From assembly GCF_017744395.1 (NCBI RefSeq), contig NZ_JAGIBI010000012.1, positions 7,766 to 71,765 on the forward strand: DNA of 64,000 nt, in the 5' to 3' direction. The notes beneath the pieces are model-generated. The model was given only the letters and a program-made list of their open reading frames with translations, ran no database searches and was not told the origin of the DNA. Origin of the DNA: Herbaspirillum sp. (GTDB taxonomy: Bacteria; Pseudomonadota; Gammaproteobacteria; Burkholderiales; Burkholderiaceae_D). This document shows positions 41,626-52,676 of the stretch, one piece after another; the stretch's first letter is position 1; every line of letters starts with the position of its first letter. A program made the position numbers and the translations under genes.

Positions 41626-41690
41626 TTTACGCCCCGTTAATGCGGCGCACCGAAAGTTTTACCAGGATTAAACGCGCATAAAACTAAGCT
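41626..41690 (+). promoter_or_regulatory. putative KdpE-dependent promoter
   Basis: TTTAC-like repeats at offsets 0/11/32/43 and TAAGCT at offset 59, the same geometry as the kdpF promoter. Confidence 0.68.
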
Positions 41691-41720
41691 GGAAGCTCCT
41701 CAACCCGTGGAGTTTCCAGC

Positions 41721-42572
41721 ATGAACCGCAAGGCACAACAAGAACAAGGTCCTGTCTTCCCGCAACACGCGCCGCTGGGCCGCCGGCGCCTGCGCAACGC
41801 CCAGTTCGCAGGCATTGCCACGCTGGCCGCTGCCGGCGCGCTGCTGGCCATCGCCGTCATCGCACCGGCGCAAGCCGCCGACAACACCGAAGCCGCCGGC
41901 GCCTCGCCGCTGCACCTGGCCGGCAATCTCGGCATCGTCAGCCAGTACGTCTTCCGCGGCACCACCCAGACCAACGAAAAGCCGGCACTGCAAGGCGGCT
42001 TCGACCTCACCCACGACAACGGCTTGTACGCCGGCCTCTGGATGTCCAACATCAGCTGGATCTCCGACAGCAACCCGGCCGCCTCGGCCAGCCTGGAAGC
42101 CGATCTCTATGCCGGCTGGAAACCGGCCGTCACCGACTGGCTCAACGCCGACCTCGGCGTGCTGCACTACGCCTATCCCGGCAGCTATCCGGACGGCATG
42201 ACCAGCCCCGACACTACCGAAATCTACGCCGGCCTGGATGCCAAATGGATCGCCTTCAAATATTCGTACAGCACCGGCAATACCTTCGGCAACGCCGGCA
42301 CCAGCGGCAGCAGCTATGCCGACCTGTCGGTCAACCATGAACTGTTCGCCGGCATTACCGGCGCTGCCCACATCGGCCGCCAGCGCTATACCGGAGCGAA
42401 TGCTTCCATGCTGTCCTATACCGACTGGAAGCTCGGCCTGAGCCGTGATTTCTCCGGCTACGTCTTGGGACTGGCCTATACCGGCACCAACGCATCGGAT
42501 GCCGGCTACACCATCCGCGGCAAGAACATCGGGCGCAGCCAGGTGGTGCTGTCGCTGAACAAGACGTTTTGA
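41721..42572 (+). CDS. TorF-family putative porin
   Basis: SQYVFRGTTQT...PALQGGFD, GLYAGLWMSN, terminal LNKTF; true start uncertain. Confidence 0.85.
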   Translation: MNRKAQQEQGPVFPQHAPLGRRRLRNAQFAGIATLAAAGALLAIAVIAPAQAADNTEAAGASPLHLAGNLGIVSQYVFRGTTQTNEKPALQGGFDLTHDNGLYAGLWMSNISWISDSNPAASASLEADLYAGWKPAVTDWLNADLGVLHYAYPGSYPDGMTSPDTTEIYAGLDAKWIAFKYSYSTGNTFGNAGTSGSSYADLSVNHELFAGITGAAHIGRQRYTGANASMLSYTDWKLGLSRDFSGYVLGLAYTGTNASDAGYTIRGKNIGRSQVVLSLNKTF

Positions 42573-42603: not shown

Positions 42604-42987
42604 ATGCGCACCCAACGCCTACATCCGCTCTCCCCGCGCCATCTCTTCCTGCGTACCGGCCGCCGCCACCACTACCGCTGCGCGCTGGCCGCGCTGCTGG
42701 TCTTCATCGCCTGCGCCGGCCTGCTGCCACTGGCCCAGGCGGTGGTCCCCTACCGCTCACCCGACGACTACGGCCCTTCGCCGCAAGCGCAACGGCACCG
42801 CGGCGACTGCCGCCGCCAGGTATTGCAAGCGGTGAACGGGAAGATAGAAAGCGAGGATTTCGTCGCTCGCACCGACCGCGAATACTTCCGCTACGTGGTG
42901 CGCCAGAAGCTGCGCGAGGTGATGTTCATCTGCGATGCCCGCAATGGCGAAATACGCAGGCAGATCGATATCTGGGGGGATCTTTAG
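42604..42987 (+). CDS. exported PepSY-like protein
   Basis: hydrophobic leader; C-terminal ICDARNGEI resembles the PepSY DAxTGE motif. Confidence 0.5.
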   Translation: MRTQRLHPLSPRHLFLRTGRRHHYRCALAALLVFIACAGLLPLAQAVVPYRSPDDYGPSPQAQRHRGDCRRQVLQAVNGKIESEDFVARTDREYFRYVVRQKLREVMFICDARNGEIRRQIDIWGDL

Positions 42988-43012: not shown

Positions 43013-43531
43013 TCAATACGAAAATTGCCGCATTACCATTTCCATCAGATCCCTCGCCTCCTTTCTGGAACACAAGCGAAGCTTGGCTCCGGCAAAACCT
43101 TCGAAGAAGGATTGATGAAAAATACGGGCGCTCGATCCATCACGCGTGCAATAGCTGTCGGCCCAGGCCAGCAAATCCGCAAACGACTGTTCCGACGCGC
43201 CGCCACGTGGGCCGCGTTGCCGGATATTGGCGACACATTCCTCCTCCCCGATATCAAGCCAGAGCAGCATGGTCGCCCTATCGGCAATTTCGGTCGCAAT
43301 CCAACCGTAGATACCTTCCATAATCCACTGATCGCCTACAGCAACTTCCTTGGCCATGCGAATCACCTCTGTCCGCTCGCGTGCCTTGTTATAGCCATCC
43401 GCCAGCCAATGGATGGAATCCCAGTCCGTCCACTTCATTCCGGTCTCCCGCTGCAACTGCTCGGCCAGCCAACTTTTCCCCGACCCCGAGTTCCCGATCA
43501 CAACGATTCTGTTGAAATCACACCTCCTCAT
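43013..43531 (-). CDS. adenylate-kinase-like P-loop protein (FlaR/topology-modulation-like)
   Basis: VIGNSGSGKS, WIMEGIY; ATGA overlap with the kdpE stop; low GC. Confidence 0.75.
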   Translation of the reverse strand: MRRCDFNRIVVIGNSGSGKSWLAEQLQRETGMKWTDWDSIHWLADGYNKARERTEVIRMAKEVAVGDQWIMEGIYGWIATEIADRATMLLWLDIGEEECVANIRQRGPRGGASEQSFADLLAWADSYCTRDGSSARIFHQSFFEGFAGAKLRLCSRKEARDLMEMVMRQFSY

Positions 43532-44241
43532 GGCTCCCCCACGACTTCCGCCACCCGATACCCCACCCCGATCTCGGTAAGGATATGCACCGGCTGCGCC
43601 GCATCCCGCTCCAGCTTCTGGCGCAGGCGCTGCATGTAGATGCGCAGGTAATGGTGGTCTTCCGCATGCGACGGTCCCCAGCCCGCCACCAGCAATTGCC
43701 GGTGCGTGATCACGCGGCCGGCGTCGCGCAGCAGGGTGGCAAGCAGGCGGTATTCGATCTGCGTCAGGTGCAGCGCCTCGCCGTTGCGGGTGACGCTGCG
43801 CGCCGGCAGGTCGACCACCACCTCGCCCAGGCGGTAGCGGCCGCTCGCCTTGTCGACGCCGGAGGCGCGCGCGTGGCGGCGCAGTTGGGCGCGCATGCGG
43901 GCCAGCAGTTCGGGCATGCCGAACGGCTTGGTCAGGTAGTCGTCGGCGCCAGCGTCGAGCGCTTCGACCTTTTCCGACTCCTGCGTGCGGGCCGAGAGGA
44001 TCACGATGGGCACGCCGCTCCAGCTGCGGATCTCGCTGATGACCTGCTTGCCGTCGAGGTCGGGCAGGCCGAGGTCGAGGATGATCAGGTCGGGCTTGCG
44101 GGTGCCGGCTTCGGTCACGCCCTCGCGCGCGGTCTTGGCTTCATGGACGATGAAACCCTCTTGCTCCAGCGCGCCTTTCACCAGCTTGCGGATGTGCGGG
44201 TCGTCTTCGATGAATACGATGTTGCCTGCGTGTTCCTGCAT
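43528..44241 (-). CDS. kdpE: K+ response regulator
   Basis: PDLIILDLGLPDLDG, GADDYLTKPFG, HYLRIYMQRLRQKLE, LTEIGVGYR. Confidence 0.96.
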   Translation of the reverse strand: MQEHAGNIVFIEDDPHIRKLVKGALEQEGFIVHEAKTAREGVTEAGTRKPDLIILDLGLPDLDGKQVISEIRSWSGVPIVILSARTQESEKVEALDAGADDYLTKPFGMPELLARMRAQLRRHARASGVDKASGRYRLGEVVVDLPARSVTRNGEALHLTQIEYRLLATLLRDAGRVITHRQLLVAGWGPSHAEDHHYLRIYMQRLRQKLERDAAQPVHILTEIGVGYRVAEVVGEP

Positions 44242-44250
44242 GTTCTTTCC

Positions 44251-46974
44251 TTATTCTTCCGGCAAGTCGGGCTGCGCCTCCACCGGCAGCGTGAAACAGA
44301 CGGTAGCGCCTTGCCCCGGCTCTTGCGGCGCGATCCAGATGCGGCCCTGGTGGGCTTCGACGATGGCGCGGCAGATCGCCAGGCCGAGGCCGACGCCGGG
44401 CGTGCTGGACTCATTGTCGCCGCGCGTGAATTTTTCGAAAGCGTGCTGCGCCATCGCCGGCGGGAATCCGCGGCCGTGGTCGGACACGCTGACCTTGACC
44501 TGCTGCGCGCCGTCCAGCGTCTCGACATGGGCGGCGATGGCGATGGCGCTGCCCGGCGGCGAATACTTGGCCGCATTCTCCACCAGGTTGGAGAATACCC
44601 GTTCCAGCAGCACCGCATCGACCCGCAGCAGCGGCAAACCGGCCGGCAGGCGCACTTCGACCGAACGGCCTTCGAGCGTCTTTGACAGCAAGCGCAGCGC
44701 CGACCCCGCCACTTCCTCCAGCGCATTCCACTGGCGATTCAGCGTGACTGCGCCGGCCTGCAGGCGCGCCATGTCGAGCAGGTTGTTCATCAGGCCGACC
44801 ATCTTCTGCGACTGTTCACCGATAGTGCGCGCCATGGCGCGGGCATCCTCGTCCAGCCGGGGATTGGCGGCCAGCACGTCGGCGCTGCCGACCAGGGAAG
44901 TCAGCGGTGTGCGCAGGTCATGCGAGATGGCCGACAGCAGCGAGTTGCGCAGGCGTTCCGACTCCATGCTCACCAGCGCATCCTGCGCCACCTCGGCGTA
45001 ATGCAGGCGCTCGATGGCCATGGCGATCTGCGAGCAGAAGATTTCCAGCATCTGGCGGTTCTCGGGCAATGCCAGCTGTGCCGCGGCAAGCTGGCGCTCG
45101 TCCTCGCTGGCGCCTTCGATGGCGAAGGCCAGCACGCCGCGGGTGCGCATGGTGGCCGTCAGCGGCAGGTAAAGCGCGGCGGCCGAAGGCAGCGTGGCGG
45201 TGCCCTTGCCGGCCGGCTGGCCGTTGTCGTAGACCCATTGCGCCACCCCGGCATCGACGCTCTTGAGCACATGGGCGCCGCCCGCCTCCTGCTCCGGCTC
45301 GGCCAGATGCAGCTGGTTGGCGCTGTCGGGCAGGAAAAAGGCGATGCGCGCGCCGAACACCGCGGCCAGGTGGCGGCGGCCGATTTCCAGGATCTGGTCC
45401 AGCGTCAGCAGGGCCGACAATTCCTTGCCCAGCATGTACAGGTTGGAGGCGCGCGTCTCGCGCTGCATGGCCACGCTGGCCTGGCGCCGCAGCCTGGCGG
45501 TCAGCGAGCTGATGAACAGCGACACCGCCAGCATCACCAGCAGCGTCAGCAGGTATTGCACATCCGAGACCGAGATCGAAAACCGTGGATCGACGAAGAA
45601 GAAATCGAAGGACAGCACCGACAGCACCGACACCAGCGCCGAAGCCGAACGGCCATGGCGCATCGCCACCAGCATCACGCCGACCAGGTACAGCATGATG
45701 ACATTGGCCGGATGCAGGAAGTCGTTGAGCACGAAAGCCAGCGCGGTGGTGACGGCGCAACTGGCCACCGCCCAGGCATAGCCGCGTATGCGCCGACGGC
45801 GCGTGAGCAGGTCCTGCGCCGCATCGGCGACGGAATCTTCGCGGCTGTCGCCATCGCCGGCGGCGGTCCGGCTGCGGGCGACGGTATAGATGTCGACGCC
45901 TTCGCCCAGCGCGGCGATGCGCTTGGCCAGCCGGCCGCGCTGCTGGCCGATCACCAGCTTGCCCGCATTGCGGCTCTTGGTGAACTGCAGCAGCGCCGTG
46001 GCGAGTTCGTCGCCGCTGATGCTGGCGGTTTCCGCGCCCAGCGACTGCGCCAGCTTGAGATAGCCGAGCACGCGCTCGCGCCCGGCCAGCGCCTGGCTGC
46101 CATTGGCCAGGTCGACATGCACCGCCAGCCATTCGGCCTGCAGCTTGGCCGCCAGCCGCGCCGCCTCGCGGATCAGCCGCTCCTCGCCGGCACCGCTACC
46201 GACGGCCACCACGATGCGCTCGCGCGCCTGCCATAGCTGGGCGATGGAACGGTCGGCGCGGTACTCGCGCATGTCGGCATCGACCCGGTCGGCGGTGCGG
46301 CGCAAAGCGATCTCGCGCAGCGCGATCAGGTTGCCCTTGCGGAAGAAATTGCGCCCGGCCTTCTCGGCCTGCTGCGGCATATACACCTTGCCTTGCTTCA
46401 GGCGCGCCAGCAGTTCGTCGGGCGGGATGTCGACCAGCATGACGTCGTCGGCCTGGTCGAACACGTGGTCGGGCACGGTCTCGAACACGCGGATGCCGGT
46501 AATCTGGCCGACCACGTCGTTCAGGCTTTCGATGTGCTGGACGTTGAGGGTGGTGTAGACGTCGATGCCGGCTCGCAGCAGTTCGTCGATGTCCTGCCAG
46601 CGTTTGGCATGGCGCGAACCGGGCACGTTGGAATGGGCCAGTTCGTCCACCAGCATGACTTGCGGCTTGCGTTGCAGGGCGGCGTCGAGGTCGAACTCGG
46701 GGAGCAGGCGGTCGCGGTAGGCGACCTTTTTCATCGGCAGGCGTTCGATGCCTTGCAGTTGTTCCTCGGTCTCGCTGCGGCCGTGGGTTTCAACCACGCC
46801 GGCGACCACGTCGATGTTTTGCGCGCGCAGGACCTGGGCGGCTTCCAGCATGGCGAAGGTCTTGCCTACGCCTGCCGAAAAACCGAAAAAGACCTTCAGG
46901 CGGCCGCGGGATTGGCGGTCTTCCTCGCGCATTACGCGTTCGAGCAGGTCGTCGGGGTTGGGGCGGGTGGTCAT
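44251..46974 (-). CDS. kdpD: K+ sensor kinase
   Basis: GFSAGVGKT, VDELAHSN, LRELALR-type motif, USP, TM, GAF, ISHDLRTPL. Confidence 0.96.
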   Translation of the reverse strand: MTTRPNPDDLLERVMREEDRQSRGRLKVFFGFSAGVGKTFAMLEAAQVLRAQNIDVVAGVVETHGRSETEEQLQGIERLPMKKVAYRDRLLPEFDLDAALQRKPQVMLVDELAHSNVPGSRHAKRWQDIDELLRAGIDVYTTLNVQHIESLNDVVGQITGIRVFETVPDHVFDQADDVMLVDIPPDELLARLKQGKVYMPQQAEKAGRNFFRKGNLIALREIALRRTADRVDADMREYRADRSIAQLWQARERIVVAVGSGAGEERLIREAARLAAKLQAEWLAVHVDLANGSQALAGRERVLGYLKLAQSLGAETASISGDELATALLQFTKSRNAGKLVIGQQRGRLAKRIAALGEGVDIYTVARSRTAAGDGDSREDSVADAAQDLLTRRRRIRGYAWAVASCAVTTALAFVLNDFLHPANVIMLYLVGVMLVAMRHGRSASALVSVLSVLSFDFFFVDPRFSISVSDVQYLLTLLVMLAVSLFISSLTARLRRQASVAMQRETRASNLYMLGKELSALLTLDQILEIGRRHLAAVFGARIAFFLPDSANQLHLAEPEQEAGGAHVLKSVDAGVAQWVYDNGQPAGKGTATLPSAAALYLPLTATMRTRGVLAFAIEGASEDERQLAAAQLALPENRQMLEIFCSQIAMAIERLHYAEVAQDALVSMESERLRNSLLSAISHDLRTPLTSLVGSADVLAANPRLDEDARAMARTIGEQSQKMVGLMNNLLDMARLQAGAVTLNRQWNALEEVAGSALRLLSKTLEGRSVEVRLPAGLPLLRVDAVLLERVFSNLVENAAKYSPPGSAIAIAAHVETLDGAQQVKVSVSDHGRGFPPAMAQHAFEKFTRGDNESSTPGVGLGLAICRAIVEAHQGRIWIAPQEPGQGATVCFTLPVEAQPDLPEE

Positions 46975-46997
46975 TTTGAGGATGGTTTTAGAGCATT

Positions 46998-47723
46998 GTA
47001 GTCTGGTCTTGCTGCGTTCTGATGCTCTGGCTTTATTACTTGGTCTCTCCGGTCGAAAGGGAGCGCCGGGGGCGGCCCGGCAGCCGCTCACTTTCTTTGG
47101 CCCGCCAAAGAAAGTAAGCAAAGAAAACGGCCCCTAAGTGCCAGCCCTCCTGCGGAGGGTGCCCGTTGGAGCGCCATGAAAAATGGATCAGCGCGGCAGT
47201 CGGAGCGAAGCGACTCTGCCGAGCCCATTTTTCATGGCGCTCCAACGGCTGGCCCACAAGGGGAAATGCTTAAATGCCTCGCCTGCGGCATCGGGATTGG
47301 GATCGTGGTTCGCTATCTACTGTGGATTTGCCGGCGTCTTAACGACACTGGGTCCTGACTTTCGTCAGGACGACGCGTAGATGCGATAGCGATACACCGC
47401 ACCGATGCCGCAGGCGAGAAGCAAGCACCGCAATGCCGAAGGCGAGCCGTCTCCGCAGTCCGCTTCTGACCAGCCGCTGGAGCGAGGGGAAAAATGGATC
47501 AGAAAGGACGCCGGAGCGCAGCGACTTGCGGCCTTTCCCATTTTTCCCCTCGCTCCAGCGGGTACCCCGAAGGGGCTGGGCAGTAGCGGTCGCCTTCTTT
47601 TGCTTACTTTTCTTGGCGAGACAAGAAAAGTGAGCGGCTGCCGGGCCGCCCCCGGCGCTCACCTTCGACCGAAGAAAGATAAGCATAGAGCCAGTACACC
47701 GACACGCAGCAAGACCAGACTAC
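46998..47723. repeat. 726-bp nested palindromic element, copy 1
   Basis: perfect 20-bp terminal IR GTAGTCTGGTCTTGCTGCGT; mirrored internal modules; central CGTC-type REP hairpin at 47348-47375. Confidence 0.9.
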
Positions 47724-47736
47724 CCAAAAACCCAAA

Positions 47737-48339
47737 CTACTTAGCAGCCAAAGGCAAAGGCGCCACCTCATCCAAAGCCAAATTCAACTTCAACACATTA
47801 ACCCGAGCCTCCCCTAAAAACCCCCACTGCGGCGCCTCGGTATAAGTCCCAACCAACCCACGAACCAGCTCAACCCCAATCCCCCGAGCTCGAGCCACCC
47901 TCCCCACCTGATAATCCGCAGCCGCCGGACTGATATGCGGATCCAGCCCGCTACCGGAAGCCGTCAACAAATCGATAGGAACAGCCGGCCCGCCGCCAGC
48001 CTCGCGCAACACCTTGACCCGCTCCTCGGCAGCCTGCTTGAGCGCCGGATTGGTCGGCCCCAGATTGCTGCCGCCGGAAGCCATGCCGTTATTGGGAAAC
48101 TCGCCGCTAGCCGACGGCCGCCCCCAAAAATACCCGGCCCCGGAGAAATTCTCGCCGATCAGCTCAGAGCCAACCGCCACCCCGCCGCGCTCGATGATGC
48201 TGCCATTGGCCTGGCGCGGAAAGAAAGCCTGCGCCAGCCCGGTAACGACCGCCGGGTAAATGCCGCCGAGCACCACGCCCAACAGGATGAACAAGGTCAG
48301 CGCGGGACGCAGCGCATTATTCGAAAAAGGTGATTTCAT
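47737..48339 (-). CDS. kdpC: Kdp ATPase C chain
   Basis: [46 protein letters not shown]. Confidence 0.96.
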
Positions 48340-48366
48340 GATGTTTCCTTGAGAAGTCAGGATGGC

Positions 48367-50565
48367 TCAAACCAAGCCAAAGGCAGCCAGCAGCATGTCG
48401 ATCAACTTGATGCCGACAAACGGCACCAGCAACCCGCCCACGCCATAAATCAGCAGATTGCGCCGCAGCAGCACCGCCGCGCCCAGCGCGCGGTAAGGCA
48501 CGCCGCGCAGCGCCAGCGGAATCAGCGCGACGATCACCAGCGCATTGAAGATCACCGCCGACATGATGGCCGAGTCGGGGCTGGCCAGATGCATCACGTT
48601 CAACGCGCCCAATTGCGGATAGGTCGCAACGAACATGGCCGGAATGATGGCGAAATACTTGGCCACATCGTTGGCGATGCTGAAGGTGGTCAGGCTGCCG
48701 CGCGTCATCAGCATCTGCTTGCCGATCTCAACGATCTCGATCAGCTTGGTCGGGTTGCTGTCGAGGTCGACCATGTTGCCGGCTTCCTTGGCGGCCTGGG
48801 TGCCGCTGTTCATGGCCACCGCCACATCGGCCTGGGCCAGCGCCGGGGCGTCGTTGGTGCCGTCGCCGGTCATCGCCACCAGCTTGCCTTCGGCCTGGTG
48901 CTGGCGGATCAGCGCCAGCTTCTGCTCCGGCGTGGCTTCAGCCAGGAAGTCGTCGACGCCAGCCTCGGCGGCGATGGCGGCGGCGGTCAGGCGGTTGTCG
49001 CCGGTGATCATCACGGTCTTGATGCCCATGCGGCGCAGCTCGCTGAAGCGCTCCTTGATGCCGCCCTTGACGATGTCCTTCAGTTCCACCGTGCCGAGGA
49101 TGCGGATCGGCGCGCCGTTATGGACCGCTTCGGCATCGCTATGCCACTCCGCCACCACCAGCGGCGTGCCGCCGCGGCGGGCGATCGCTTCGATATCGGT
49201 TTCGACCTGGTTCGGCAGGCGCTGGTCGGCTTGCCGCGCCAGCTTGCGGATGGCGTCGGCCGCGCCCTTGCGAATGCGGCGCGCGCCGAGGTCGATGCCG
49301 GAGACGCGGGTCTGGGCCGAGAACGGGATGAATTGCGCGCCCATGCCCGCCATTTCGCGTTCGCGCAGGTTGAAGCGGTTCTTGGCCAGCACCACGATGC
49401 TGCGGCCTTCCGGCGTCTCGTCGGCCAGCGATGCCAGTTGCGCGACATCGGCCAGCTCGCGCTCGGACACGCCCGGCGCCGGCAGGAAGGCGGCGGCCTG
49501 GCGGTTGCCCAGCGTGATGGTGCCGGTCTTGTCCAGCAGCAGCACGTCGACGTCGCCGGCGGCTTCCACCGCGCGGCCGGAGGTGGCGATCACGTTGGCC
49601 TGCATCATGCGGCTCATGCCGGCCACGCCGATGGCCGACAGCAGGCCGCCGATGGTGGTCGGGATCAGGCAGACCAGCAGCGCGATCAGGGCGGTGACCG
49701 TGACCGGCGCGCCAGCGCCGGCAGCCGTAACCGAGAATTGCGAGAACGGCAGCAGGGTCACCGTCACCAGCAGGAACACGATGGTCAGCGCCACCAGCAG
49801 CAGCGTGAGCGCGAGTTCGTTGGGCGTCTTCTGGCGGCGCGCGCCTTCGACCATGGCGATCATGCGGTCGAGGAAGGCTTCGCCCGGGTTGACCGAGACG
49901 CGCACGACGATCCAGTCCGACAACACCCGGGTACCGCCGGTCACGGCCGAGAAGTCGCCGCCGGATTCGCGGATCACCGGGGCTGATTCGCCGGTGATGG
50001 CGCTCTCGTCCACGGTGGCGACGCCTTCGATGACGTCGCCGTCGGCCGGCACGGTGTCGCCGGCTTCGATCAGCACCAGGTCGCCTTTGCGCAAGGAGCC
50101 GCCCTCCACCACTTCACACTGGTCATGGCTGACGCCGGCGCCGCGCACCAGCTCGGCGCGGCGCAGCTTCTTGGCCAGCACGCTTTTCTTGACGCCGCGC
50201 AGCGCCGCCGCCTGGGCCTTGCTGCGGCCCTCGGCCAGCGCTTCGGCGAAGTTGGCGAACAGCACCGTGAACCACAGCCAGGCGGCGATGGCGAAGATGA
50301 AGCCGGCCGGCGCCTCGCCCTTGGACACCAGCGCCTGGATGAACAGCAGCGTGGTCAGGATGCTGCCGAGGTAGACCACGAACATCACCGGGTTGCGCCA
50401 CTGCACGCGCGGCGACAGCTTGCGGAAAGAGTCGACCAGTGCCGGCTTGACGATCCTGGGATCGAACATCCAGCGCGCGGTCTGCGCGGCGGACGGTATC
50501 GCATCCGATGCCGCAGCGGCGCCGGACGGAGTATGGGAGGAAGGAGTAGTCATATCAGTATCCAT
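48367..50565 (-). CDS. kdpB: Kdp ATPase B chain
   Basis: [37 protein letters not shown]. Confidence 0.97.
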
Positions 50566-50568
50566 TTT

Positions 50569-52350
50569 TTACATCGCCATCATTTGCAGATGCTCGACCA
50601 CCGGACCCAGCGCCAGCGCCGGGACATAGGTCAGCGCACCGACCAGGATCACCGCGCCGATCAGCAGGGCCACAAACAGCGGGCCGTGCGTGGGCAAGGT
50701 GCCGGAAGTCGCGGCCAGCCGCTTCTTGCCGGCCAGCGAGCCGGCCATCGCCAGTACCGGGACGATGATCCCGAAGCGGCCCAGCCACATGGCGATGCCG
50801 GTGGTGATGTTGTAGTACGGCGTGTTGGCAGAAAGCCCGGCGAAGGCGCTGCCGTTGTTGTTGGCGGCCGAACTGAAGGCGTACAGGATTTCGGAGAAGC
50901 CGTGCGCGCCGGGGTTGGCGATGCCGGCCAGGCCGCTCTCCACCATCACCGAGACGGCGGTGAAGATCAGCACCAGCGCCGGCGTCATCAAGATGGCGAT
51001 CGACATCATCTTCATGTCGAACACGCCGATCTTCTTGCCCAGGTATTCCGGCGTGCGGCCGATCATCAGGCCGGCGATGAACACCGCCAGCACGGCGAAG
51101 ATCAGCATGCCGTACAGGCCGGCGCCGACGCCGCCGTAGACCACCTCGCCCAGCTGCATCTGCAGCATCGGCACCAGCCCGCCCAGCGGCGAGAGCGAAT
51201 CATGCATGGCATTGACCGCGCCGCAGGAAGCGGCCGTGGTGATGGCGGCGAACAGGCTGGAAGCGATGATGCCGAAGCGGGTTTCCTTGCCTTCCATCAT
51301 GCCGGGGCCGGAGGCGTGCAGCGACGCCAGCATGGGGTTGGGCTGCGATTCGAAATACATGATCGTCAGCGTCATCGCCGCGAACAGGATGGTCATCGCC
51401 GCCAGGATGGCCCAGCCCTGGCGGCGGTCGCCGACCAATACGCCGAAGCTGGTACACAGCGCGGCGGGGATGATCAGGATCGCCAGCATCTCCAGGAAGT
51501 TGGACAATGGGGTCGGGTTCTCGTACGGGTGTGCCGAATTGGCGTTGAAGAAGCCGCCGCCGTTGGTGCCCAGCATCTTGATCGCTTCCTGCGAGGCGAC
51601 CGGCCCCATCGGCAGGATCTGCTTATCGGTGCTCTTGGCCTCGACCACCGGCTCGCCCTTGGCATCCTTCATCGGCTGGCCCGCGGCGTCCAGCTTGGGC
51701 GTCGTGTAGTGGGTCGTTTCCAGCGTCTTCACTTCCTGGTAGGGCTTGAAGTTCTGGATGCTGCCCTGCTGCACCAGCGCCAGCGCCAGGACCACCGACA
51801 GCGGCAGCAGCACGTACAGCGAGGAGCGCAGCATGTCGACCCAGAAGTTGCCGATGCTCTTGCTGCTGTGGCGGGCGAAGCCACGGATCAGCGCGAAGGC
51901 GATGGCGATGCCGGTGGCGGCCGAGACGAAGTTCTGCACCGCCAGCGCCACCATCTGCGTCAGGTAGCTCATGGTGGACTCGCCCACGTAGCCTTGCCAG
52001 TTGGTGTTGGCGACGAAACTGATTGCGGTGTTGAACGAGGAATCGACGCCGACGTTGCCCAGTGCCTGCGGGTTCAGCGGCAGCCATTGCTGCACGCGCT
52101 GCAGGGCGTAGACGAACAGCAGGCCGAGCAGGTTGAACAGCACCGCGGCGATGGCGTATTGCTTCCAGTCCATCTCGGCATCGCGCTGGATGCCGCACAG
52201 GCGGCACAGCACGCGCTCCACGCCGCCGAAGATACGGTTGATTGCCGATTTCCCTTCCATCACGTGCGCGATGTAGCCGCCCAGCGGTACCGACAGCACC
52301 AGCAGGATGGCGAGATAGAGGGCTAGTTGGAGATAGGCGTTGCCGTCCAT
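50569..52350 (-). CDS. kdpA: Kdp ATPase A chain
   Basis: NTNWQGY, LGTNGGGFF, SCGAVN, NNGSAFAG. Confidence 0.97.
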   Translation of the reverse strand: MDGNAYLQLALYLAILLVLSVPLGGYIAHVMEGKSAINRIFGGVERVLCRLCGIQRDAEMDWKQYAIAAVLFNLLGLLFVYALQRVQQWLPLNPQALGNVGVDSSFNTAISFVANTNWQGYVGESTMSYLTQMVALAVQNFVSAATGIAIAFALIRGFARHSSKSIGNFWVDMLRSSLYVLLPLSVVLALALVQQGSIQNFKPYQEVKTLETTHYTTPKLDAAGQPMKDAKGEPVVEAKSTDKQILPMGPVASQEAIKMLGTNGGGFFNANSAHPYENPTPLSNFLEMLAILIIPAALCTSFGVLVGDRRQGWAILAAMTILFAAMTLTIMYFESQPNPMLASLHASGPGMMEGKETRFGIIASSLFAAITTAASCGAVNAMHDSLSPLGGLVPMLQMQLGEVVYGGVGAGLYGMLIFAVLAVFIAGLMIGRTPEYLGKKIGVFDMKMMSIAILMTPALVLIFTAVSVMVESGLAGIANPGAHGFSEILYAFSSAANNNGSAFAGLSANTPYYNITTGIAMWLGRFGIIVPVLAMAGSLAGKKRLAATSGTLPTHGPLFVALLIGAVILVGALTYVPALALGPVVEHLQMMAM

Positions 52351-52351
52351 G

Positions 52352-52441
52352 TCAGAACTCCTCCGGCTTGATCAGGGCGTACACCAGGTACGCCAGCAGG
52401 CCGACCGAAACGGCCAGGCCGAGCAAGGTCATGGCGTTCAT
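52352..52441 (-). CDS. kdpF: Kdp ATPase F peptide (29 aa)
   Basis: LLAYLVYALIKPEEF signature. Confidence 0.93.
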   Translation of the reverse strand: MNAMTLLGLAVSVGLLAYLVYALIKPEEF

Positions 52442-52551
52442 TTCTTGTCGCCCTCCTGCCGTTCGAGGCGGCTGCACAGGGCGATGAAGCCCCACATCGA
52501 GGCGCCGCACAAGAGCAGCATGCCTACATAGAGAAAATCGGTTTGCCACAT
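52438..52551 (-). CDS. 37-aa hydrophobic ORF coupled to kdpF
   Basis: MWQTDFLYVGMLLLCGASMWGFIALCSRLERQEGDKK; GGAG upstream; TGA overlaps the kdpF ATG. Confidence 0.7.
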   Translation of the reverse strand: MWQTDFLYVGMLLLCGASMWGFIALCSRLERQEGDKK

Positions 52552-52611
52552 TTCCCACTCCATTGTTTGCGTTGTTCGATCCGTTCCGCATGCGGAATCG
52601 GAGACAGTCCA

Positions 52612-52676
52612 ACGATAGGCGGATGGGCGTTAAATCCTGGTAAAACTATGGGGATGGGGTGTAAACAGGATGTAAA
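52612..52676 (-). promoter_or_regulatory. KdpE-binding sites and -10 of the kdpFABC promoter
   Basis: GTTTACATCCTGTTTACACCCC resembles the E. coli KdpE box (TTTACACCCC); second tandem site; TATCGT -10. Confidence 0.8.

Follow-up and report, generated by a model that had tools for sequence, protein, structure and literature searches.

We analyzed a 64,000-nucleotide stretch of a Herbaspirillum sp. genome (NCBI RefSeq assembly GCF_017744395.1, contig NZ_JAGIBI010000012.1, positions 7,766 to 71,765 of the forward strand; hereafter the window), in which a gene for a TorF-family outer-membrane porin is preceded by a promoter with the same architecture as the one ahead of kdpF in the nearby kdp cluster. 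This shared architecture is real and far beyond chance. The porin and the gene downstream of it form a putative operon that is very probably activated by KdpE at low K+, as judged from sequence comparison. A sequence-only reading of this DNA had proposed that the porin operon extends the Kdp regulon, and that proposal is now supported at the sequence level by the conservation of the promoter, its uniqueness in weight-matrix scans, the matching geometry of the E. coli kdp promoter, the retained DNA-binding residues of KdpE and the recurrent linkage of TorF genes to kdp. The account of the locus that we consider probable as a whole is a KdpE-dependent porin promoter, built like that of kdpFABC, driving a porin that would feed K+ to KdpFABC.

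The porin promoter and its kdp counterpart

By direct reading of the plus strand upstream of the porin gene, we find four half-sites, TTTAC at 41626, TTAAT at 41637, TTTAC at 41658 and TAAAC at 41669, followed by the hexamer TAAGCT at 41685-41690. The promoter spans 41626-41690, with its elements at offsets 0, 11, 32, 43 and 59. The spacer ahead of the porin gene is 97 bp long, and the first half-site of the distal repeat lies 3 nt past the stop codon of the preceding enoyl-CoA hydratase gene. On the minus strand upstream of kdpF, the half-sites are TTTAC at 52676, 52665 and 52644 and TTAAC at 52633, and the hexamer is TATCGT at 52617-52612. Reading both promoters directly thus confirmed the earlier claim that they have the geometry 0/11/32/43/59 in common. 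The elements of the two promoters are as follows.

41626..41642, plus strand: distal KdpE-box-like direct repeat of the porin promoter, TTTACG-N5-TTAATG (N5 = ccccg), in 11-bp register
41655..41675, plus strand: proximal 21-mer of the porin promoter, AGTTTTACCAGGATTAAACGC, with a further direct repeat in 11-bp register, TTTACC / TAAACG (offsets 32 and 43)
41685..41690, plus strand: predicted -10 hexamer of the porin promoter, TAAGCT, 59 nt from the first half-site
52660..52676, minus strand: distal KdpE box of the kdpF promoter, TTTACA-N5-TTTACA
52627..52647, minus strand: proximal 21-mer of the kdpF promoter, AGTTTTACCAGGATTTAACGC, shared with the porin promoter
52612..52617, minus strand: predicted -10 hexamer of the kdp operon, TATCGT, at offset 59

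From the position of the -10 hexamer, the porin transcript is predicted to start at approximately 41695-41697.

The proximal block is the most closely shared part of the two promoters. The motif AGTTTTACCAGGATTWAACGC has exactly two copies in the window, at 41655-41675 (plus strand) and 52647-52627 (minus strand). The full 21-mer, AGTTTTACCAGGATT(A/T)AACGC, is identical at 20 of 21 positions between the porin and kdpF copies, as had been claimed, and the total in the window remains two even when three mismatches are allowed; in 100 shuffles, no match with up to three mismatches was obtained. Across the whole 4.32-Mb genome, the 16-nt core of the 21-mer occurs without mismatch only at the porin and kdpF promoters. 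A third genomic match to the 16-mer, with two mismatches in the ftsJ-ftsH spacer, was rejected as chance; it has neither the distal pair nor the -10, and the composite weight matrix passes it over.

For the genome-wide scans, we built the weight matrix from 38 sites of other species, excluding the two sites of this genome. The kdpF promoter scored 85.8 bits and the porin promoter 67.7 bits, with the third-best position in the 4.32-Mb genome at -8.8, a gap from which we conclude that the composite promoter is specific to the kdp and porin operons. With the 21-mer part of the matrix, the porin site scored 41.6 bits and the best position outside the two promoters 15.4 bits. A scan with the distal pair only returned a tail of 15-22-bit matches elsewhere in the genome, none of them at kup. 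No composite site lies at kup, the gene for the low-affinity K+ transporter, and a TrkH gene was not found in the genome. A sigma-70 consensus scan misses the porin promoter, as expected for an activator-dependent promoter that has no -35 element.

The promoter is conserved together with the gene that it precedes. Orthologues of the porin (59-87% identity) are present in 20 of 24 sampled Herbaspirillum congeners; porin and kdp lie on one contig, with the porin about 10 kb from kdpA, in 17 of these 20, and on different contigs of a fragmented assembly in the remaining 3. The promoter build is retained ahead of the porin orthologue in 19 of the 20 genomes, as is the 21-mer, and the build of the kdpF promoter is retained in 21 congeners. 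Alignment of the resulting 40 porin and kdpF promoters yields the consensus TTTAY-N6-TTTAY, with both repeats in 11-bp register in 40/40. The invariant positions are TTTA in half-sites 1 and 3, TT.A in half-site 2, T..A in half-site 4 and, in the -10, A at position 2 and T at position 6 (40/40 each). The spacers vary (one reads ccagga, ccggga or aagaa, and a second has tcctg or caaaa), and the gene upstream of the porin changes from species to species. Counts across congeners are non-independent, as the genomes are related, and the stronger arguments from conservation are the changed flanks, the invariant half-sites set against variable spacers, the leave-one-genome-out weight matrix and the differing operon arrangements among families.

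The same geometry is found in the E. coli K-12 kdpFABC promoter (NC_000913.3, ~728,860-728,930, minus strand), which carries TTTATA at 0, TTTACA at 11, TTTGC at 32, TTTGC at 43 and TACCCT at 59. In older literature, TACCCT is reported as the -10 of this promoter. The E. coli KdpE operator, TTTATA-N5-TTTACA, falls in the region that KdpE protects from DNase I, -72 to -50 (PMC3264566), and counting from the footprint edge at -72 places the start 5-8 nt past TACCCT, which fits TACCCT as the -10. Between the footprinted site and the -10, and in phase with the operator, E. coli has a second direct repeat, TTTGC-N6-TTTGC, that is unmentioned in the KdpE paper (PMC3264566). The KdpE encoded in the window can be aligned over its full length to E. 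coli KdpE chains (E = 1e-77) and retains R193, R200 and T215, the residues required for binding (PMC3264566), within a protein whose recognition helix (HYLRIYM..LRQKLE) is nearly identical to that of E. coli. The NCBIfam scores are 988 bits for KdpD and 297 bits for KdpE, both slightly below the strict equivalog cut-offs. The kdp promoters that we examined in other Burkholderiales families have the same architecture, as in genome G163, where TTTACA, TTTACA, TTTAC, TTTAC and TACTGT stand at 0/11/32/43/59. Because its sequence, spacing and position match those of the E. coli and Burkholderiales kdp promoters, we assign the distal pair of the porin promoter as a predicted KdpE operator.

The proximal repeat has the half-site consensus and the 11-bp register of the distal one and ends about 10 nt before the -10. 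PhoB-type activators substitute for the -35 element about 10 nt ahead of the -10. The proximal 21-mer may be placed in one of two roles, that of a second, weaker KdpE site or that of a -35-region or core-promoter element.

TorF genes in ammonium and potassium modules

TorF genes had been described in the sequence-only reading as best known beside glnK-amtB, and this holds across 200 sampled genomes of the Burkholderiales (GTDB order). PF09694 is present in 127 genomes and KdpA in 67. Among the 150 TorF genes listed, at least 85 have an ammonium transporter gene within 4 kb, 9 are part of a kdp cluster, and 56 are elsewhere or unresolved. Co-occurrence of torF with kdp had been suggested as a check on the proposed regulon: both KdpA and TorF occur in 39 genomes, and the two are linked in 9 of them, including all five sampled members of the host's taxonomic family. 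The linked genes take several arrangements. The order porin, small open reading frame (sORF), kdpF, kdpA is found in G144, G188 and G163; TorF follows kdpC or kdpB in G093, G154 and G178; and its place is after kdpE in G041 and G184, on the same strand, and in Herbaspirillum, in convergent orientation. In the eight linked genomes other than Herbaspirillum, the porin shares its strand with kdp and the gaps are short, which makes co-transcription with kdp the plain reading.

Genome G188 has tandem kdp-type promoters, at about 1000-1100 and 2000-2075 of the segment C1:5162300-5166600. The one ahead of its porin retains three of the four half-sites, each at its standard offset, together with TAGACT at 59, and a complete second copy lies between the porin and sORF-kdpF-kdpA. 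On sequence grounds, G188 presents itself as a second, independent case of a porin gaining its own promoter copy, and Herbaspirillum would be the end state of that process, with the gene detached from the kdp operon and the promoter kept.

In a maximum-likelihood tree of 49 TorF sequences (quick search, with support from the Shimodaira-Hasegawa-like approximate likelihood-ratio test only), the kdp-linked copies are non-monophyletic, and the starred branches of the tree force at least four changes, by which a single origin of the kdp-linked genes was rejected. The kdp-linked TorF of G163 is the sister of the amtB-linked TorF of the same genome, with branches of 0.057 and 0.071. G154 displays the same sister pattern, with branches across such pairs of 0.06-0.4, and in G041 both copies, the kdp-linked and the amtB-linked, belong to a single small group. 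As the same-genome copies are closest relatives, they point to TorF genes of the ammonium module having been duplicated recently into kdp operons. The tree is thus read as repeated recruitment of the TorF barrel from an ammonium-uptake to a potassium-uptake module. The 20 kdp-linked TorF genes of Herbaspirillum form one clade (support 100), apart from the Herbaspirillum nlmA paralogue.

That paralogue offers an internal comparison. The second TorF gene of this genome (C8:251060, 42% identical to the window porin) is the first gene of nlmA-glnK-amtB, which we examined in the segment C8:249620-253327, and its promoter, near 1340-1370 of that segment, has a sigma-54 -24/-12 element of the form TGGCAC-N5-CTGCT, TTGGCACGGCTCCTGCT. 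As an internal control, the nlmA-glnK-amtB promoter was inspected for a KdpE-type motif, and none is present in it. Upstream of nlmA, we also observe TGCACC-type repeats resembling NtrC sites. In H. seropedicae, nlmA-glnK-amtB is NtrC-dependent and induced by nitrogen limitation (PMC3023670). The window porin does not classify as an NlmA orthologue, since it does not head a glnK-amtB operon and groups apart in the tree.

The porin operon and the kdp cluster

The porin operon and the convergent kdp cluster comprise the following features.

41691..41717, plus strand: leader hairpin pairing the Shine-Dalgarno GGAG (41709-41712) with CUCC (41696-41699), -16.2 kcal/mol, z = -2.7
41721..42572, plus strand: TorF/Gcw_chp-family outer-membrane protein of 283 residues with a signal sequence, a C-terminal Phe and a predicted 12-strand beta-barrel
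42604..42987, plus strand: downstream gene encoding 127 residues, 31 nt past the porin stop, with its own AAGGAG
43528..52441, minus strand: the whole kdp cluster, convergent to the porin operon
43528..44241, minus strand: kdpE
44251..47121, minus strand: kdpD
47737..48339, minus strand: kdpC
48367..50565, minus strand: kdpB
50569..52350, minus strand: kdpA
52352..52441, minus strand: kdpF
52438..52563, minus strand: conserved 41-codon ORF for a small membrane peptide, downstream of the kdp promoter and ahead of kdpF, with a stop codon that overlaps the kdpF start (ATGA)

The porin scores 180 bits against TIGR02001, 'TorF family putative porin' (cut-off 47), and 197 bits against PF09694, Gcw_chp (cut-off 24). 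Its closest named relatives are Herbaspirillum TorF-family proteins, with that of H. chlorophenolicum at 90% identity. The hydrophobic N-terminal segment ends in AQA, and the C terminus reads ...LNKTF. An AlphaFold2 model from a 30-sequence alignment has 12 strands, with a predicted local distance difference test score (pLDDT) above 90 for residues 61-283. The best fold matches of this model in the PDB are small monomeric channels, namely NanC/KdgM (TM-score by target 0.65), PcoB (0.59), Tsx and OmpG. The invariant residues alternate along the strands, with six acids (D95, E126, D128, D144, E167 and D235) against R79, H217 and K237. In the model, these alternating invariant acids would suit a cation-lined lumen. 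That K+ conduction is the purpose of the porin we regard as close to an even call, leaning slightly to the negative. In the literature searched, we found no TorF-family member with an electrophysiological characterization.

In the porin leader, the Shine-Dalgarno is paired in 14 of 15 orthologous leaders when each is folded as a single sequence. The stems differ between two clades, GCUCC/GGAGC in one versus ACUCCACA/UGUGGAGU in the other, and the loop motif UCAACC is conserved. RNAalifold returned no structure for the porin leaders, the stems of the two clades being misaligned. The hairpin may serve in translational gating or in stabilization of the 5' end.

The gene downstream follows the porin in most Herbaspirillum porin loci, and no terminator-like site was found between the two genes; they are probably co-transcribed. 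The 127-residue protein is found only in Herbaspirillum (20 database clusters) and has an N-terminal membrane helix or signal ending in AQA and two conserved cysteines. Its model consists of a helix (H60-76) followed by a four-strand sheet, with pLDDT of ~90. The earlier description of this protein as PepSY-like is weakly supported. A weak resemblance in fold speaks for it: the best matches of the model (E 0.04-0.5) include YpeB (5boi) and small periplasmic or lipoprotein entries such as 4exr, 4k61 and 4hbr. YpeB contains a PepSY domain. Against the PepSY model PF03413, one orthologue comes to 12.7 bits (E = 0.16), where the cut-off is 24. Pfam and NCBIfam searches gave no match for the protein of the window. 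A PepSY-like fold is a possibility raised by the model.

Several observations concern the kdp cluster itself. The 41-codon ORF ahead of kdpF encodes a single helix and has a good ribosome-binding site. Counterparts, of the form MD(F/I/L)xYxG...C...L... for example, precede kdpF in all congeners and in the other Burkholderiales families examined, and no NCBIfam model matches it. From its sequence and placement, it could be an additional small Kdp subunit. A gene for a 172-residue P-loop kinase-like protein (43013-43531, minus strand), whose start overlaps the kdpE stop, has weak matches to 'DNA topology modulation protein' and AAA_33 and was found at none of the 19 further porin loci of Herbaspirillum. 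Between kdpC and kdpD, the gap (47122-47736) measures ~615 nt, versus ~90-290 nt in genomes G184 and G041, and contains an ORF (47339-47686) with no family match; it looks as though an insertion separates the pump genes of the operon from its sensor genes.

Proposed mechanism, alternatives and comparison with known systems

Considered apart from the function of the porin, KdpE-dependent regulation of the operon is quite probable on the sequence evidence. In the mechanism that we propose, scarcity of K+ would lead KdpD to phosphorylate KdpE. A KdpE dimer would then bind the distal repeat (41626-41642), centered ~62 nt upstream of the predicted start, and possibly also the proximal repeat (41658-41674), over the -35 region. 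Bound KdpE would bring RNA polymerase to the weak -10 TAAGCT, with the transcript starting near 41696. The two-gene operon would thereby be transcribed, and the porin would be made together with KdpFABC, as would a small envelope protein of possibly PepSY-like fold. The predicted monomeric 12-strand barrel would most likely increase the permeability of the outer membrane to K+ and to the similar ion NH4+, and the greater flux of K+ across the outer membrane would feed the KdpFABC pump with its micromolar affinity.

Several points weigh against this account. The second distal half-site of the porin promoter, TTAATG, deviates from TTTACA. The proximal repeat of E. coli lies outside the KdpE footprint, which covers only the distal pair, and the best-conserved shared block, the proximal 21-mer, may be core promoter rather than operator. 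As for the protein, general porins already pass K+. Finally, four congeners have kdp without a linked porin, from which it follows that the porin is dispensable for Kdp function.

The alternative that survives best accepts control by KdpE and assigns the porin a purpose other than K+ entry, as a channel for NH4+ or small solutes or as part of envelope remodeling under the osmotic or ionic conditions that trigger KdpD. It draws on the family's ties to ammonium: NlmA, the sole studied member, belongs to an NtrC-controlled ammonium operon, the 85 or more TorF genes (of 150) noted above sit beside amtB, and the kdp-linked copies of G163 and G154 are recent duplicates of amtB-linked ones. That TorF genes entered kdp operons repeatedly and independently, with four or more arrangements as the outcome, argues instead for a tie to the substrate of the pump. 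Moreover, K+ and NH4+ are near-identical in size, which makes one pore type for both the simpler explanation. We consider this alternative unlikely.

Recognition of the shared element by another regulator of the OmpR/PhoB family, such as OmpR, or use of the proximal 21-mer by some other factor, is improbable. OmpR is the classical porin regulator, and its half-sites are also TTTAC/GAAAC-like; the 21-mer, moreover, is at once the best-conserved block and outside the E. coli KdpE footprint. The register of the half-sites is nevertheless 11 bp, as in the KdpE operator, and not 10 bp, as in OmpR sites, in 40/40 promoters; the distal pair is exactly at the position footprinted for E. coli KdpE; and the composite is confined to kdp and the kdp-linked porin, with all four half-sites following one consensus. 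Least probable of all is an unused relic copied with a gene leaving the kdp operon, for which the tandem copies in G188 show that promoter duplication does occur, or a chance match, given that the function-relevant positions are invariant in 19 diverged orthologous promoters that differ in their flanks, spacers and upstream neighbor gene, that no shuffle reproduced the 21-mer and that the weight-matrix gap exceeds 75 bits.

Returning to control by KdpE and entry of K+ as the favored account, we note that textbooks present Kdp as a purely inner-membrane system, with K+ assumed to cross the outer membrane via general porins. Published descriptions of Kdp include no outer-membrane partner of this kind. 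Our full-text literature searches found no paper that connects Kdp or K+ limitation with the TorF/Gcw_chp family, and a literature search for K+-limitation or kdp expression data in Herbaspirillum returned none. We tentatively propose, as a broader idea that we hold with less than even confidence, that TorF barrels are the outer-membrane leg of high-affinity monovalent-cation uptake, with a K+/NH4+-selective pore. They would have been repeatedly duplicated from the NtrC to the KdpE regulon, by insertion into a kdp operon or by a private copy of the kdp promoter, and in Herbaspirillum would act with a lineage-specific PepSY-like envelope partner and a hairpin that gates translation by hiding the Shine-Dalgarno.

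A dedicated channel under KdpE control would add an outer-membrane component to a much-studied bacterial ion-uptake system, in parallel to PhoB and PhoE for phosphate, and would provide the first function for the very widespread, uncharacterized TorF/Gcw_chp family, which is represented in 127 of the 201 Burkholderiales genomes sampled. The two Herbaspirillum paralogues, with the same fold and an NtrC/sigma-54 versus a KdpE-type promoter, are a clean natural experiment on how regulons capture genes through duplication and promoter copying, in an organism that is genetically tractable. The presence of the proximal repeat in E. coli as well, yet outside the published footprint, reopens the matter of how KdpE activates transcription.

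The closest known system in terms of the promoter is that of E. coli kdpFABC. Both promoters have two TT-initial 6-bp direct repeats in 11-bp register, the second repeat at 32/43 and the -10 at 59, and the DNA-contact residues of the two KdpE proteins are identical. The porin promoter differs in that it would drive an outer-membrane protein operon and not the pump, and in having a proximal repeat of TTTAC/TAAAC in place of TTTGC/TTTGC and TTAATG as its second distal half-site. In terms of the protein, the closest is NlmA of H. seropedicae (PMC3023670), which shares PF09694/TIGR02001 and is membrane-associated and induced, on scarcity of a cation, alongside the inner-membrane transporter for it. 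NlmA heads its transporter operon under NtrC and sigma-54, whereas the window porin belongs to a separate, convergent operon with a KdpE-type sigma-70 promoter.

The kdp-embedded TorF genes of other Burkholderiales likewise encode a TorF-family barrel linked to kdpFABC(DE), an association that recurs in several families. Relative to these, the Herbaspirillum porin is detached and faces the end of the kdp cluster, with its own promoter copy and an added second gene. In structure, NanC/KdgM and PcoB (PDB 2wjq and 7pge) are the best matches and are also small 12-strand outer-membrane channels, but they share only 11-14% sequence identity with the porin, with no family relationship apparent, and their substrates are acidic sugars and copper.

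In logic, the nearest parallel is the PhoB/phoE system. The phoE gene of E. coli encodes a phosphate-starvation porin and is activated by PhoB via a pho box. In both systems, a starvation-sensing regulator of the OmpR/PhoB family has 11-bp direct repeats that replace the -35 about 10 nt before the -10, and switches on a high-affinity inner-membrane transporter together with a dedicated outer-membrane channel, as would be the case for the Herbaspirillum porin. The regulator, the half-site and the nutrient are different, and PhoE is a 16-strand trimer, whereas the TorF barrel is a predicted 12-strand monomer.

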